Shown: positions 1 through 5,980 of the stretch, one piece after another | Numbering within the stretch: the first letter of the stretch is position 1 | How the letters are laid out: each line of letters starts with the position of its first letter | IMG/VR virus record: IMGVR_UViG_2778261177_000001 | Span: 1 to 6,516 of that record | Direction: 5' to 3' (one strand) | Length of the DNA stretch: 6,516 nucleotides | From: a virus | Taxonomy: Duplodnaviria > Heunggongvirae > Uroviricota > Caudoviricetes | The notes under the pieces: generated by a model | Database searches by the model: none | Seen by the model: only the letters and a program-made list of their open reading frames with translations | Told to the model about the DNA's origin: nothing | Made by a program: the position numbers and the translations under genes

Positions 1-418
<418 letters not shown>

Positions 419-441
<23 letters not shown>

Positions 442-637
442 TTCTGATCCTCTTCAAAAGGCTACCTGTTACTGGTCGATTTAAGTCAACCTTTACCGCT
501 GATTCGTGGAACAGATACTCTCTTCCATCCTTAACCGGAGGAGGGAATATCCTGCATTCGCGTACCCATCGACGAACTGTTTCAAGGCTTCTTGGACGTC
601 GCTGGCGTGCGTTCCACTCCTGAAGTGTCAAGTACAT
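419..637 (-). CDS. xis: excisionase Xis (lambda-type)
   Basis: 72-aa ORF MYLTLQEWNARQRRPRSLETVRRWVRECRIFPPPVKDGREYLFHESAVKVDLNRPVTGSLLKRIRNGKKAKS, essentially identical to lambda Xis from memory. SD GGAG lies 8 nt upstream of the ATG. The 3' end overlaps the int start by 23 nt. Confidence 0.92.
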
Positions 638-664
638 CGCAAAGTCTCCGCAATTACACGCAAG

Positions 665-685
665 AAAAAACCGCCATCAGGCGGC
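665..685 (-). terminator. candidate intrinsic terminator between the Cys-rich gene and xis (minus-strand sense)
   Basis: Minus-strand RNA would read CCGCC-UGAU-GGCGG (5-bp all-GC stem, 4-nt loop) followed directly by UUUUUU. The stem is short, so strength is uncertain. Confidence 0.4.
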
Positions 686-727
686 TTGGTGTTCTTTCAG
701 TTCTTCAATTCGAATATTGGTTACGTC

Positions 728-1027
728 TTATTCGATGCGCACTCCTGGTATTTCGCCTTTTGATATTGCTAAGTCATAAATTTGCGCGGCACTATACCCA
801 TCTCGCATCCATGAATCTAAGGCGCGAACAGCCTCGCTACGCTTTTTATCTTCTCTCTCATTTTTGATATCAACGAGGACATCAACGCAATTAAGGCAAA
901 TGTGGATTTTGTCCTTACATTCGATCATGGCGGCTTTGCCATGATTTCCGCCACACAGTGAGCATAAATCTTCAGGGGCTGGCTGGTATTTCTGTAACGT
1001 TAGAGGGTTGAATGTTGAACAGGCCAT
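728..1027 (-). CDS. small Cys-rich putative zinc-ribbon protein, hypothetical; occupies the lambda ea8.5 position, possibly Ea8.5-like
   Basis: ORF 728..1039 in the track. I prefer the ATG at 1027 (MACSTFNPL...) because GGAG at 1034..1037 sits 6 nt upstream, whereas the ATG at 1039 has no SD. Cys spacing is C-x2-C-x11-C-x6-C-x2-C, followed by a helical-looking C-terminal half. Stop is TAA at 728..730. Confidence 0.6.
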   Translation of the reverse strand: MACSTFNPLTLQKYQPAPEDLCSLCGGNHGKAAMIECKDKIHICLNCVDVLVDIKNEREDKKRSEAVRALDSWMRDGYSAAQIYDLAISKGEIPGVRIE

Positions 1028-1037
1028 AATCATCTCC

Positions 1038-1064
1038 ATAAAACAAAACTCGCCGTAGCGAGTT
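1038..1064 (-). terminator. terminator-like hairpin plus U-tract immediately 5' of the Cys-rich gene start (minus-strand sense)
   Basis: Minus-strand RNA AACUCGC-UACG-GCGAGUU (7-bp stem, 4-nt loop) followed by UUGUUUUAU. The U-tract abuts the SD and start codon. Confidence 0.3.
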
Positions 1065-1065
1065 C

Positions 1066-1096
1066 AGATAAAAGAAATCCCCGCGAGTGCGAGGAT
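1066..1096 (-). terminator. candidate intrinsic terminator in the intergenic leader (minus-strand sense)
   Basis: Minus-strand RNA AUCCUCGC-ACUC-GCGGGGAU (8-bp stem including one G-U pair, 4-nt loop) followed by UUUCUUUUAU. Confidence 0.45.
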
Positions 1097-1221
1097 AGTT
1101 ATTCATTGTCGATATTTACATTTATTTCGAATATCTTTACTGGGTAATCGCCAAAGTCATATGTTTTTTATTCTGTTTTATAAGCACTACCAAGTACTGC
1201 TTATTACAAATAAGAAAAGGC

Positions 1222-1253
1222 TGAAAAAATATTTAAGGCCACAACTGTGGCCC
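1222..1253 (-). terminator. candidate intrinsic terminator downstream of the DUF1311-like gene (minus-strand sense)
   Basis: Begins 10 nt after the TAA stop. Minus-strand RNA GGCCAC-AGUU-GUGGCC (6-bp stem) followed by UUAAAUAUUUUUU. The U-run is slightly offset from the stem. Confidence 0.45.
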
Positions 1254-1262
1254 TAAATTTAC

Positions 1263-1961
1263 TTACGGCACTGCGTTAATCAGATTACAAATACCTCTTT
1301 TGGCAGGGTCTGAATTCAACTTCTGAAAATTGGCGTTCAACATAGCCGTGTGTAAGTGATTCTCAACCTCAAAGAATAAGTCGATTTTGCCCTCTTTGGC
1401 TGCCTGTTTCTTCCAAATATTCACTTGGTCATCAGCAATACGACTGGCGCAAGTGAACAAGAACGAACTGCCTCTAGGAATGGATGTCGTGCTGTAATAC
1501 TCACCATCTACTTCTACATATTTAGCTCGGAATGACTCTAAGGTTAGCTCATTGCCGTTCTTGACCGACTTAGCTTCTGCCTTACTTGTTTCTTCCTGCT
1601 CTTCAGAATGTTTCTGCGCCGACGTGGGTATGTCATTGGCCGCTGTTACGCTGACTGAACTCCCCAAACCTTTGAGGCCATTAATTTGGATAAGATAAGC
1701 CAGCTCCAGAGCCTTATTATCAGTGAGTTTTCCACGCATATTTACCCACTGACGTTGAACCATTTTTAGGGTGTCTGCGTTCTCTGGGTTTCCTTTGAGG
1801 GCACTAGAATAGGCAGAGCTAAGCTGTTCGTCTAATTTTGACAGACGTTCGTTATCGCAGATTTTATGTTCGATTGCTGTCGAAGCCTTTTGGCAGTCAA
1901 AGCTGGCTGCAAATGCACCCGGCGATGCCACTAACAATGATGCCAGTAGGATATTTTTCAT
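1263..1961 (-). CDS. secreted DUF1311 / lysozyme-inhibitor LprI-like family protein (moron)
   Basis: Track ORF 1263..1988. I prefer the ATG at 1961 (MKNILLASLLVASPGAFAASFDCQKAST...) because GGAG lies 6 nt upstream and it starts a canonical signal peptide (K, hydrophobic core, AFA-A cleavage-like site). The mature N-terminus FDCQKASTAIEHKICDNERLSKLDEQL...Y...QRQW matches my memory of the DUF1311/LprI N-terminal motif. Stop is TAA at 1263..1265. Confidence 0.75.
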   Translation of the reverse strand: MKNILLASLLVASPGAFAASFDCQKASTAIEHKICDNERLSKLDEQLSSAYSSALKGNPENADTLKMVQRQWVNMRGKLTDNKALELAYLIQINGLKGLGSSVSVTAANDIPTSAQKHSEEQEETSKAEAKSVKNGNELTLESFRAKYVEVDGEYYSTTSIPRGSSFLFTCASRIADDQVNIWKKQAAKEGKIDLFFEVENHLHTAMLNANFQKLNSDPAKRGICNLINAVP

Positions 1962-1984
1962 ATTCACTCCATAAATACAAAAGC

Positions 1985-2000
1985 GCATTACTATAGCACT
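1985..2000 (-). promoter_or_regulatory. candidate extended -10 sigma70 promoter for the DUF1311-like gene
   Basis: Minus strand reads GTGcTATAGT, a TGn-TATAGT extended -10 (plus coordinates 1990..1998), about 30 nt upstream of the ATG at 1961. No convincing -35 hexamer. Confidence 0.35.
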
Positions 2001-2091
2001 TAACCGATCGCTTATCTCGCCCGTTCGTCATTCTTATCTAACCAGAACATGCGACTGCCACAGCACATGTCGAGGATTGCTGCATGTCCAG

Positions 2092-2529
2092 TCACTGGTT
2101 GCCTCCTTTGCGAAGCTGGGCGGCTAACTCATCACATATGTGCGTCAAAGAGCAAAGTTTGATTGATGGGTGTTCGCGCATCATCTCAACCCCCTGCGCC
2201 CGCACTTCAGACAGGAAAGAGTCGGTGGCTGGGGTTTCAACACGGATGCTGTCGCGCAAGATGAAAAATGCATTGAGCATTCCAGTCTCTGGCACTTCAT
2301 CCTGATGCTTCTCATACGCATCAAGAGCCTTCATCATCTCTGCTCCGAATGGTTGAGGGTGCACAGACTTCAGCTCCGCATTCTCCGCCGCCAGCGCCGC
2401 GCACTTGGCCTCCGCTTCAGCAAATTTGCGTACCAGATATTCAGCATTTGTTTCGTTAACCTTTAAATCACATGGGATGCATTTACCTTTCAGAAATCCA
2501 TCCATCTCAATTAGTGTCATTCGTTTCAT
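2092..2529 (-). CDS. hypothetical protein (145 aa; coiled-coil-like central segment, CxxC near N-terminus and CxxxxxC near C-terminus)
   Basis: Track ORF 2092..2547 begins at a GTG. I prefer the ATG at 2529, which overlaps the upstream small-ORF stop as ATGA (translational coupling) and has GGAG 9 nt upstream. Stop is TGA at 2092..2094. Start is ambiguous between 2547 (GTG), 2529 and 2520. Confidence 0.6.
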
Positions 2530-2690
2530 TTCTTCCCACTCCGCCACATCGCATTCAGATATTTGTTTTGATTCACTGACGGAGAAGAATTTCTCTTAAG
2601 CAATTCCTCTCTCGATGGCATTGGCTTTACGCGTTGGCGAATAATCATTTCTGCCGGAAGAATGCCGGGATTGTATGCAAGTCCTCTCAT
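2526..2690 (-). CDS. small hypothetical protein (54 aa), middle gene of a coupled three-gene cassette
   Basis: ATG at 2690 is preceded by GAGGA 7 nt upstream, directly after the TGA stop of the 98-aa gene. Its stop overlaps the next gene start (ATGA). This is the 3' part of track ORF 2526..2843, whose full length starts at TTG and overlaps the 98-aa gene. Confidence 0.4.
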
Positions 2691-2700
2691 GGTAAATTCC

Positions 2701-2997
2701 TCAGTCATTACTGATAGCGCCATAGCGTGAGCGGTAATTACGCAGGCGCGGGTCGATATATTCAGGGAAGTGGGTATATGTGGCTTTGCGGAATGGTCGG
2801 ATTGATGTCTGGTAAATTCGCTCGCGTTCTTCTTTCTCTGCAAGCCATATACAGTGGCGAAATTCCTTTTCCTCTTTCGTTTCCTGCGGTAGAGACATTA
2901 TCCGGTCGTAGTTTTTCCTGAATTTATCCAGCACCTCCGATACGGAATTGCCGGAACAGCGGCGCGCGTCATCCGCACCATACAGAGGCGCTGGCAT
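2701..2997 (-). CDS. hypothetical protein (98 aa, basic, Arg/Lys/Glu-rich)
   Basis: ATG at 2997 with strong SD AGGAGA 5 nt upstream (minus strand aatcAGGAGAaaatcATG). Stop is TGA at 2701..2703. No family recognised. Confidence 0.65.
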
Positions 2998-3054
2998 GAT
3001 TTTCTCCTGATTAAATTGCGTGAATAGCGTGACGAGGGAAGGGGAGAGTTACTG

Positions 3055-5913
3055 GTGCAAAGGGTATACCCGAACACGGCACTGGTTGGCGTGCAGGTGG
3101 ACTCGGAGCAGTTCGGCAGCCAGCAGGTGAGCCGTAATTATCATCTTCGCGGGCGCATTCTGCAGGTGCCGTCGAACTATAACCCGCAGACGCGGCAATA
3201 CAGCGGTATCTGGGACGGAACGTTTAAGCCAGCATACAGCAACAACATGGCCTGGTGTCTGTGGGATATGCTGACCCATCCGCGCTACGGCATGGGGAAA
3301 CGTCTCGGTGCGGCGGATGTGGATAAATGGGCGCTGTATGTCATCGGCCAGAATTGCGACCAGTCGGTGCCGGACGGCTTTGGCGGTACGGAGCCGCGCA
3401 TCACCTGTAACGCTTACCTGACCACACAACGTAAGGCGTGGGATGTGCTCAGTGATTTCTGCTCGGCGATGCGCTGTATGCCGGTATGGAACGGGCAGAC
3501 GCTGACGTTCGTGCAGGACCGACCGTCGGATAAGGTGTGGACCTATAACCGCAGTAATGTGGTGATGCCGGATGATGGCGCGCCGTTCCGCTACAGCTTC
3601 AGCGCCCTGAAGGACCGCCATAATGCCGTTGAGGTGAACTGGATTGACCCGAATAACGGCTGGGAGACGGCGACAGAGCTTGTGGAGGACACGCAGGCCA
3701 TTGCCCGTTACGGTCGTAACGTCACGAAGATGGATGCTTTTGGCTGTACCAGCCGGGGGCAGGCACACCGCGCCGGGCTGTGGCTGATTAAAACAGAACT
3801 GCTGGAAACGCAGACCGTGGACTTCAGCGTGGGTGCCGAAGGGCTTCGCCATGTGCCGGGTGATGTTATTGAAATCTGCGATGATGATTATGCGGGTATC
3901 AGCACCGGCGGGCGTGTGCTGGCGGTGAACAGCCAGACCCGGACGCTGACGCTCGACCGTGAAATCACGCTGCCATCCTCCGGCACCACGCTGATAAGCC
4001 TGGTTGACGGGCAGGGGAATCCGGTCAGCGTGGAGGTTCAGTCCGTCACCGACGGCGTGAAGGTGAAAGTGAGCCGGGTTCCTGACGGCGTTGCAGAATA
4101 CAGCGTGTGGGGGCTGAAGCTGCCGACGCTGCGCCAGCGCCTGTTCCGCTGCGTGAGTATCCGTGAGAACGACGACGGCACGTATGCCATCACCGCCGTG
4201 CAGCATGTACCGGAAAAAGAGGCCATCGTGGATAACGGGGCGCACTTTGACGGCGACCAGAGCGGCACGGTAAATGGTGTCACGCCGCCAGCGGTGCAGC
4301 ACCTGACCGCAGAAGTCACCGCAGACAGCGGGGAATATCAGGTGCTGGCGCGCTGGGACACGCCGAAGGTGGTGAAGGGGGTGAGCTTTATGCTTCGCCT
4401 GACCGTGGCAGCGGATGACGGTAGTGAGCGGCTGGTCAGCACGGCCCGGACGGCGGAAACCACATACCGTTTCACACAACTGGCGCTGGGGAACTACACG
4501 CTGACGGTCCGGGCGGTAAATGCGTGGGGGCAGCAGGGCGATCCGGCGTCGGTATCGTTCCGGATTGCCGCACCGGCAGCACCGTCGAGGATTGAGCTGA
4601 CGCCGGGCTATTTTCAGATAACCGCCACGCCGCATCTTGCGGTTTATGATCCGACGGTACAGTTTGAGTTCTGGTTCTCGGAAAAGCGGATTGCGGATAT
4701 CAGGCAGGTTGAAACCACAGCCCGCTATCTTGGCATGGCGCTGTACTGGATAGCTGCCAGTATCAATATCAGGCCGGGCCATAATTATTATTTTTACGTT
4801 CGCAGTGTGAACACCGTTGGCAAATCGGCATTTGTGGAGGCTGTTGGCCAGCCGAGTGATGATGCATCCGGCTATCTGGATTTTTTCAAAGGCGAGATAG
4901 GGAAAACCCATCTGGCTCAGGAGTTGTGGACGCAGATTGATAACGGTCAGCTTGCGCCTGACCTGGCTGAAATCAGGACGTCCATTACGGGTGTCAGCAA
5001 TGAAATCACGCAGACCGTCAATAAGAAACTGGAAGACCAGAGCGCGGCAATCCAGCAGATACAGAAGGTTCAGGTTGATACAAATAATAACCTGAACAGC
5101 ATGTGGGCTGTGAAGCTGCAGCAGATGCAGGACGGACGCCTTTATATCGCGGGTATTGGTGCCGGTATTGAGAATACTCCTGACGGTATGCAGAGTCAGG
5201 TGCTGCTGGCGGCGGACAGGATTGCGATGATTAATCCTGCGAATGGCAACACAAAGCCGATGTTTGTTGGTCAGGGTGATCAGATATTCATGAACGAAGT
5301 GTTCCTGAAGTATCTGACGGCTCCCACCATTACCAGCGGCGGTAATCCTCCGGCATTTTCCCTGACACCGGACGGGCGGCTGACGGCGAAAAATGCCGAT
5401 ATCAGCGGTAACGTGAATGCGAACTCCGGGACGCTCAACAACGTCACGATTAACGAGAACTGTCAGATTAAGGGGAAACTGTCCGCCAACCAGATTGAGG
5501 GCGATATTGTCAAAACAGTGGGTAAGGCTTTCCCGCGGGACTCCCGGGCACCGGAGCGGTGGCCATCAGGAACCATTACCGTCAGGATTTATGACGATCA
5601 GCCTTTTGACCGGCAGATTGTTATTCCAGCGGTGGCTTTCAGCGGTGCCAGACATGAGCGGGAGAATAGCGATACTTATTCGTCATGCCGCCTGATAGTG
5701 AAGAAAAACGGGGCTGAAATTTATAACCGAACGGCTCTGGATAATACGCTGATATACACGGGTGTTATTGATATGCCTGCAGGCAGTGGCGTAATGACAC
5801 TGGAGTTTTCTGTATCAGCATGGTGGGTAAATGACTGGTATCCCACAGCAAGTATCAGCGATTTGCTGGTTGTTGTGATGAAGAAAGCCACTGCAGGCAT
5901 CACGATTAGCTGA
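3055..5913 (+). CDS. J: host specificity / central tail fibre protein J, 5'-truncated (lacks about 180 N-terminal residues; probable pseudogene or remnant)
   Basis: 952-codon frame. From about 3064 ([69 protein letters not shown]...) it matches lambda J from around residue 183 to the C-terminus, as I recall it. An in-frame TAG at 3025..3027 and the divergent gene starting at 2997 leave no room for the J N-terminus. Track start 3055 is a GTG with GGAG about 8 nt upstream. Stop is TGA at 5911..5913. Confidence 0.88.
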
Positions 5914-5931: not shown

Positions 5932-5959
5932 GGGCGCCAGAAATGGCGCCTTTTTTATT
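5932..5959 (+). terminator. rho-independent terminator downstream of J
   Basis: GGCGCC-AGAAAU-GGCGCC (6-bp GC-rich stem, 6-nt loop) followed by UUUUUUAUU, 19 nt after the J stop. Confidence 0.7.
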
Positions 5960-5980
5960 GCAGAAAAGCGAGAGGTAATT

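Follow-up and report, generated by a model that had tools for sequence, protein, structure and literature searches.

A probable patchwork of two unrelated terminator units upstream of xis in the remnant of a lambdoid prophage

Three terminator-like hairpins crowd the intergenic region between an LprI/DUF1311-family gene and a cysteine-rich open reading frame (ORF) in the window, that is, in the whole 6,516-nt stretch of DNA analysed here. In the preliminary description these hairpins were seen packed into one region; they do not form one element, as the first of them (T1) belongs to an LprI cassette, and the other two (T2 and T3) form a separate module of 74 nt. Taken together, the evidence makes it probable that two unrelated terminator units were pieced together here in a former leftward early (pL) operon, units that would be read through under the control of the N antiterminator and would also serve as insulation. 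The earlier account had left a choice between antiterminated read-through in the manner of lambda and an attenuator or small RNA. The lambda-style half of this alternative agrees with the N genes found upstream in Escherichia coli A25, phage ev099 and lambda, and the other half found no support. Given an N gene farther upstream on that strand in intact relatives, read-through dependent on N would best explain the arrangement. Table 1 shows the features of the region and their coordinates.

Table 1. Features of the window in and around the hairpin region; positions count from the first letter of the window.
Feature	Position	Strand	Description
xis (excisionase)	419..637	minus	Pfam PF07825, E 3.9e-41; next gene downstream, same strand
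Fourth terminator-like hairpin	660..687	minus	Stem 687-668, AAGCCGCC-UGAU-GGCGGUUU followed by UUUCUU; between Cys-rich ORF and xis
Cys-rich ORF	728..1027	minus	99 aa, CxxC...CxxC; homologue of 933W L0063 and Sf6 gene 19
74-nt module	1029..1102	minus	Stop-codon context, T2, 11-nt linker, T3, Shine-Dalgarno sequence (SD) GGAG (1037-1034)
T3	1040..1065	minus	Stem 1065-1046, 8 pairs; GAACUCGC-UACG-GCGAGUUU, then UGUUUUAU
T2	1066..1096	minus	Stem 1096-1077, 8 pairs (5 G-C); AUCCUCGC-ACUC-GCGGGGAU, then UUCUUUUAU
L0064-like 3'-end remnant, non-coding	1103..1157	minus	933W homology 662-1157; 933W L0064 ends at the corresponding position
T1	1224..1258	minus	12-bp stem 1258-1231, loop AGUU, then A and UUUUUU at 1230-1224
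LprI cassette	~1226-2030	minus	69 nt of upstream sequence, LprI gene and T1; SSU5 homology (BLAST)
LprI/DUF1311-family gene	1263..1961	minus	232 aa from the RefSeq start, signal-peptide-like N terminus
Possible extended -10 promoter TGcTATAGT	1990..1998	minus	Candidate from motif reading

The three hairpins with their U-tracts lie on the minus strand where they were first described, and folding and a terminator scan agree on this. Only the extent given for T1 (1222..1253) has to be corrected, as its stem reaches 1258 and not 1253. When folded in isolation, T1, T2 and T3 have energies of -17.6, -12.1 and -11.9 kcal/mol (z -5.2, -5.6 and -4.4, respectively), and for each of them 0 of 200 shuffled sequences were as stable, so that the check by RNA folding and terminator prediction proposed in the preliminary description turned out in favour of the hairpins. 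All three are also kept in the centroid structure of a 256-nt region. A scan of the 235-nt intergenic stretch (1028-1262) detected three terminator-like sites where dinucleotide-preserving shuffles give 0.1 +/- 0.4, and not one promoter-like site where the same shuffles give 0.8 +/- 1.0. Each hairpin combines the elements by which an intrinsic terminator is recognized, namely a markedly stable G+C-rich stem (of ~5-14 bp) with a loop within the range of 3-8 nt, here 4 nt in every case, and a U-rich tail immediately 3' of the stem on the transcribed strand. Their location is likewise that of terminators, T1 lying 5 nt past the LprI stop codon and T2, in relatives, 2-4 nt past the stop codon of the upstream gene. 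No T-run was seen after the stems of T1, T2 or T3 on the opposite strand. A score of the d'Aubenton-Carafa type fell on both sides of zero, with +2.3 for T2, -11.4 or +15.7 for T3 and -12.6 for T1, and it is not relied on because the result shifts with the delimitation of the stem. T2 and T3 resemble each other above the level of shuffled controls (2 of 2000 shuffles scored as high), which hints that the pair may have originated in an old tandem duplication.

The first of the two units is the LprI cassette, a portable segment of which T1 forms the 3' boundary and for which it would act as the terminator. The gene that it carries matches the Pfam family PF07007 LprI (E 2.3e-5) and phrog_4675 (E 3.5e-94), and is also annotated by RefSeq in E. 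coli A25. The cassette is 83.5% identical to SSU5_101 and its flanks in the Salmonella phage-plasmid SSU5, which is otherwise unrelated to the window; with SSU5-like phage-plasmids the match extends to ~1173. In T1 one A stands between the stem and the Us, and the U-tract of the SSU5 counterpart is poorer. Among E. coli genomes, only 12 have a match over at least 80% of window positions 640-2100, which include the LprI gene. Being patchy among close relatives (12 genomes, versus 2299 with the T2-T3 module) and having a copy in an unrelated phage, the cassette may be moron-like. A possible promoter of the cassette is the motif TGcTATAGT, from which the sequence is conserved with SSU5 through to the LprI ATG, diverging farther upstream; a scan for -35/-10 consensus sequences did not flag this motif at 1998-1990. 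Such a cassette, with a candidate promoter, a gene and a hairpin of its own, would be self-contained. It would have entered the operon with an Ea22-like gene on one side and, on the other, the last gene ahead of xis, and the LprI-family protein that it encodes would be secreted.

The second unit, which comprises T2 and T3, has its closest known counterpart in the early-left region of phage lambda. The 74-nt module is 96% identical (BLAST) to lambda 29288-29361, a segment that lies between the ea8.5 stop and the start of orf55 (lambdap35). In the window as in lambda, 2 nt separate the end of the module from the next ATG, whichever ORF follows, and T3 directly adjoins the SD. The corresponding lambda hairpins were predicted by Bloch et al. 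2014 (PLoS One 9:e108233, PMC4195576), who ran ARNold on the lambda exo-xis region. Table 4 of that study gives t3-lambda as TTACATAACAATCCTCGCA CT CGCGGGGATTTATTTTATCTG (-11.4 kcal/mol), t4-lambda as TTTTATCTGAACTCGC TACG GCGGGTTTTGTTTTATG (-9.2 kcal/mol) and t5-lambda as AAGAACACCAAGCCGCCTGATGGCGGTTTTTTCTTGCGTG, and each of the three was called by both Erpin and RNAmotif. According to the lambda alignment, T2 is the homologue of the predicted t3-lambda and T3 that of the predicted t4-lambda; as predicted lambda terminators, then, both have already been described. In the record of Salmonella phage MG40, the second hairpin (the T3 homologue) is annotated by the depositor as a terminator. A literature search on lambda 3' ends (Term-seq, tL3) returned no mapping or termination assay for these hairpins, the published support being in silico. 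A full-text literature search with the hairpin sequences returned no match, probably owing to the spaces that break them up in the published table. The finding is an ordinary one, and what is mildly new is the documented ubiquity of the 74-nt module and its mosaic behaviour.

The module is widespread. It occurs in 316 phage records, including lambda, 434, HK140, mEp043, Sf6, P22-like Salmonella phages and many Stx phages, and in 2299 of the 5426 complete E. coli genomes (42%), with up to six copies per genome. By anchoring on the unpaired linker, 102 copies were collected, and they revealed about 14 unrelated upstream contexts and about seven unrelated downstream ORFs, joined in 29 combinations. 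In nearly all of the upstream contexts a stop codon lies 2-4 nt before T2. There are also partial copies with T2 only, with T3 only, or with both hairpins but no tail, and in one variant T2 is replaced by another hairpin (CCGC-UUAAU-GCGG). The annotated relatives inspected (A25, ev099, lambda, 933W, Sf6, 434 and MG40) all have the module on the early-leftward strand, one to three genes upstream of xis/int. The module copies are nearly identical, and among 27 distinct variants 94.4% of the cells pair, versus 93.5% in shuffles, with a single double change; the covariation score of the stems does not rise above that of the shuffles, and copies so similar place the stems beyond what covariation has the power to confirm. 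Most of the variation falls in the T2 loop (pi 0.18) and in an alternation of U-A and U-G in the T3 stem, and the UACG loop of T3 hardly changes from copy to copy (pi 0.005), a pattern that is compatible with structural constraint, without proving it. An exceptional conservation of the module was considered and rejected, as its overall diversity (pi 0.066) equals that of the third-codon positions of the adjoining orf55 (0.066). Since the module is no more conserved than these positions, its near-identity across phages points to recent exchange and not to demonstrable selection on the sequence.

On either side of the module lie further blocks of phage homology. The L0064-like remnant upstream (1103-1157) has 80% identity to Stx phages and HK022, and its former stop codon, TAA at 1101-1099, lies 2 nt before T2; in some other genomes the L0064 counterpart is annotated by RefSeq as an ASCH-domain protein. 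Downstream, the Cys-rich ORF matches phrog_3680 (E 9.8e-69), its residues 1-99 aligning with profile positions 1-99, and has no Pfam family. As to the earlier statement that the last hairpin ends directly at the SD and the start of this gene, the SD does adjoin T3, and the most likely start is ATG 1027, the one that RefSeq uses in E. coli A25 and that agrees with the end-to-end PHROG match; the ATGs at 1039 and 1033 fall within or beside the SD. An assignment of the Cys-rich protein as an Ea8.5 homologue was tried and dropped, as no PDB match supports it beyond a weak resemblance to the zinc-binding domain of ClpX (E 0.05). Between the Cys-rich ORF and xis lies the fourth terminator-like hairpin (-13.0 kcal/mol, z -2.75), which is identical to the predicted t5-lambda. 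It belongs to a stretch (640-728) with 100% identity to lambda, in which the orf55 of lambda survives as a 3'-end remnant (677-728).

The operon to which these pieces belonged can be recognized from intact relatives. Over window positions 56-3068 the intact prophage of E. coli A25 has 98.5-98.8% identity, rising to 100% over 640-2100, and upstream of the hairpins, on their strand, are abc2, ssb, recombination genes, kil and N. The gene order in phage ev099 and in lambda is as in the A25 prophage. N is annotated upstream on the strand of the module in the three records followed that far, namely A25 (14617-14889 of the prophage segment compared), ev099 (gp47) and lambda, the last together with nutL. 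In the window, homology to the A25 prophage breaks off within the 3' end of ssb, at 3068, and a J gene that lacks its 5' part begins on the opposite strand at 3055-3068; in place of an upstream N, the truncated ssb is fused to the truncated J. This junction is absent from the complete E. coli genomes searched. By this comparison with relatives the window is a deletion remnant that has lost all that lay from ssb to the middle of J, including pL, N, the genes for immunity, replication, lysis and head, and most of the tail genes. The fusion of ssb to J implies that pL and N are gone at the locus, which fits the earlier suggestion that the antiterminator is now deleted.

It had likewise been noted that almost no room is left for a promoter in front of the Cys-rich gene, and this is borne out by the absence of promoter-like sites in the scan from T1 to the gene and by the contact of T3 with the SD. 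For the same two reasons the Cys-rich gene has no evident promoter of its own, and its transcripts must cross T2 and T3. An operon of this kind is not unusual in its abundance of terminators. When the same scan was applied to lambda as a control, it recovered hairpins at 31287-31265, 33952-33931, 33512-33493 and 33162-33145, presumably the experimentally defined tL3, tL2a, tL2b and tL2c, and their stems and U-tracts are of a quality similar to those of T2 and T3. As the lambda scan shows, a pL operon with many terminators is the normal case.

In an intact phage, the hairpins would distinguish between polymerases according to their origin. A polymerase starting at pL and modified by N at nutL would ignore T2, T3 and the 687-668 hairpin, and would then transcribe the small downstream ORF, xis and int. 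A polymerase started elsewhere, as for example at the cassette promoter, would be stopped at T1 first, with T2, T3 and the 687-668 hairpin as back-ups. Since an unmodified polymerase would be stopped, the excision genes should remain silent unless N is made, and the tandem pair may in addition insulate xis/int from transcription begun at inserted cargo genes such as that of the LprI cassette. The U-rich tail of T3 together with GGAG could at the same time be where translation of the following ORF is initiated, whichever that is, and this would explain the distance of 2 nt from the module to the ATG. With pL and N lost, the hairpins in the window would be relics, and the Cys-rich gene is probably no longer transcribed from its normal promoter. 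A more tentative proposal, which we regard as rather doubtful, is that the 74-nt unit has been selected as a portable insulator and joint, keeping xis/int strictly dependent on N by halting transcripts from cargo genes upstream, and at the same time offering lambdoid phages a preferred crossover site for the accessory gene next to xis; such a dual role could account for a module that 42% of complete E. coli genomes carry, with at least 29 combinations of flanks.

Termination might not be the main function of the hairpins. As N-antiterminated transcription runs through them, they come to sit inside the mRNA, where they could act mainly as barriers to 3'-exonucleases for a cleaved upstream message and as a portable cassette for translation initiation. 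Such a role would suit the stable UNCG-type tetraloop of T3, which hardly varies, as well as the constant inclusion of the SD within a module that is set 2 nt ahead of the start codon in at least seven unrelated ORFs. It is nevertheless unlikely as the principal function, given that a U-tract follows directly after each hairpin, a feature needed by an intrinsic terminator and not by a stability element, and that both ARNold programs call the hairpins terminators. The mosaic of contexts invites another thought, namely that the 74-nt module persists chiefly as a linker for homologous recombination between xis-adjacent genes, its terminator activity being incidental. The 102 copies with their ~14 upstream and ~7 downstream contexts in 29 combinations, the differing points at which partial copies break, and a diversity equal to that of neutral sites next door are what such a linker would produce. 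A mere linker, however, could do without a pair of hairpins whose U-tracts are confined to the transcribed strand and which sit exactly between a stop codon and an SD; moreover, where T2 is replaced, the CCGC-UUAAU-GCGG hairpin takes its place, and the annotation of Sf6 marks 'boundary sequences' elsewhere and none here. This explanation is judged improbable, somewhat more so than a role in RNA stability or translation. All of these roles, whether in RNA stability, as a translation cassette or as a linker, fit the data and could go together with termination, and the strand specificity of the U-tracts argues for termination as the primary design.

The two remaining explanations, both raised in the preliminary description, concern regulation by the RNA itself. 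An attenuator-type leader of the Cys-rich gene, operating by alternative folding of T2 and T3, a leader peptide or a bound factor, would account for the position of the hairpins directly in front of that gene, and a reading of the stems finds a shared CUCGC/GCGRG core through which the arms could in principle cross-pair. Both the minimum-energy and the centroid folds, however, are two independent hairpins, and one and the same module precedes at least seven unrelated ORFs. The sequence upstream of T2 is unrelated between copies (~14 contexts), and hence holds no conserved leader ORF, antiterminator arm or promoter; even the 44-codon ORF that begins at ATG 1106 has no start in lambda and in most other contexts. 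An Rfam scan of the whole window at E <= 1 returned no match, a result that counts against an attenuator and a small RNA alike. With no conserved alternative structure, leader peptide or binding domain found upstream, an attenuator appears very improbable, and the suggestion of an attenuator-like leader is not supported. A small RNA, derived from a 3' UTR or released as a T2-to-T3 fragment of ~65 nt that ends in a terminator hairpin and acts in trans, is equally hard to credit. It is true that a terminator hairpin with a U-tail is the usual 3' module of Hfq-binding small RNAs, and that lambdoid prophages of EHEC encode many short small RNAs at conserved positions, as reported in the EHEC Hfq-CRAC paper. 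That paper, however, places the prophage small RNAs downstream of PR', away from xis, and the preprint on the Pas small RNAs makes no mention of xis, excisionase, exo or Ea22. In the region itself there is neither a promoter-like site nor a conserved seed region or body 5' of the terminator, so that the idea of a small RNA element is not upheld either.

The reading of the region as two terminator units subject to N-dependent read-through has mainly practical value. The module, common and mobile as it is, can conveniently mark the xis-proximal end when lambdoid prophages are annotated. Beyond annotation it is of little consequence: the odd cluster of three terminators is the seam between a cargo cassette and a lambda-type tandem terminator, and the hairpins of a degraded prophage can now be tied to named, previously predicted lambda sites.

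Several known systems invite comparison. Morons of lambdoid phages are reportedly inserted genes with a promoter and a terminator of their own, and the LprI cassette is similar to them in being present in few relatives, in being common to SSU5, in ending with a terminator hairpin and in containing a conserved candidate promoter motif. It differs in that it lies in the early-left region, whereas classical morons are mostly found in the late region, and in that its promoter is only a motif. The resemblance of T2 to t3-lambda and of T3 to t4-lambda extends to the sequence, with one or two base differences each, and these two together with t5-lambda occupy the same strand and the same place just upstream of xis. 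The lambda pair, however, stands between ea8.5 and orf55, while the pair in the window stands between an L0064-like remnant and an L0063-like ORF, in DNA from which pL and N have been deleted; in lambda, too, these terminators are known by prediction. The terminators tL2 and tL3 of lambda have been mapped biochemically, and N-modified polymerase overrides them. T2 and T3 share with tL2a-c and tL3 the short G+C-rich hairpin with an interrupted U-tract and, in intact relatives, the operon and the strand, and the logic would be alike, with downstream genes expressed only once N acts; their sequences and positions are different. Terminators arranged in series are expected to multiply the efficiency of termination, and as two intrinsic-terminator-like hairpins about 30 nt apart T2 and T3 recall the T1-T2 pair of rrnB, to which they are unrelated in sequence and from which they differ in that T3, as the second terminator, is joined with the ribosome-binding site of the gene that follows.

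T2 and T3, two minus-strand terminator-like hairpins with U-tracts (window 1038-1096), are alike in having a common CUCGC...GCGRG stem core and a common UUU-N-UUUUAU tail, and only two of 2000 shuffles reached their similarity score; this suggests that a single terminator was duplicated in tandem long ago. In phage 434 (L127 1235-2011), the module, the 74-nt unit made up of T2, T3 and the SD, is immediately preceded on its upstream side by two small opposite-strand ORFs with membrane-protein annotations, and the start codon of one of them falls within the T2 arm; these ORFs could have arisen by insertion in antisense orientation, or be an artefact of annotation.

The LprI cassette, i.e. the LprI/DUF1311 gene and its flanks, may carry its own promoter in the form of an extended -10-like motif (see the table), which is conserved with phage SSU5 together with the whole LprI leader, the divergence being found farther upstream. 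The stretch downstream of T1, the hairpin at the 3' boundary of the cassette, matches SSU5-like phage-plasmids at about 82% and includes an imperfect hairpin.

Additional features of the window and their coordinates
Feature	Position	Strand	Remarks
Fourth terminator-like hairpin	687-668		between Cys-rich ORF and xis; identical to predicted t5-lambda
Cys-rich ORF	728-1027		phrog_3680; homologue of 933W L0063 and Sf6 gene 19
Imperfect 9-bp hairpin, AAGCAGUAC-UUG-GUAGUGCUU	1181-1203	minus	without U-tract
TGcTATAGT, extended -10-like motif	1990-1998	minus	29 nt upstream of LprI start
Deletion junction, from homology to A25 prophage	2998-3068		ssb 3' end / J lacking 5' end
Strong terminator-like hairpin, GGGCGCCAGAAATGGCGCC + UUUUUUAUU	5932-5961	plus	

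Homology to the intact related prophage of E. coli A25 ends at window 3068, within the last ~58 nt of ssb, and the J tail-tip gene, which lacks its 5' end, begins at 3055-3068 on the strand opposite ssb. Judged from this comparison, the region is a deletion junction at which everything from ssb to mid-J has gone from the prophage; none of the complete E. coli genomes in the set searched has the ssb'-J' junction. Antisense to J, an Arg/His/Pro-rich ORF of 620 codons (3049-4911, minus strand) looks like a shadow ORF of this G+C-rich gene and not a gene in itself. The hairpin beyond J is located 19 nt past its stop codon, ahead of a lom-like gene. At the other end of the window, the int reading frame (441 downwards) is open as far as the edge, and homology to the int genes of lambda and A25 breaks off at ~55. 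The final 18 codons (VTNGAIVIHTQRLKSDPG) are presumably unrelated to lambda Int; there may be another junction at window 1-55, or int may be mosaic.

The Cys-rich ORF has a CxxC...CxxC spacing and weakly resembles the ClpX zinc-binding domain (E 0.05); judged by sequence, it is not a homologue of Ea8.5. Between this ORF and xis (window 660-728), window 677-728 is a remnant of the orf55 3' end that is no longer coding. In lambda the hairpin of t5-lambda, a terminator predicted in the exo-xis region (Bloch et al. 2014, PMC4195576), overlaps the orf55 stop codon.
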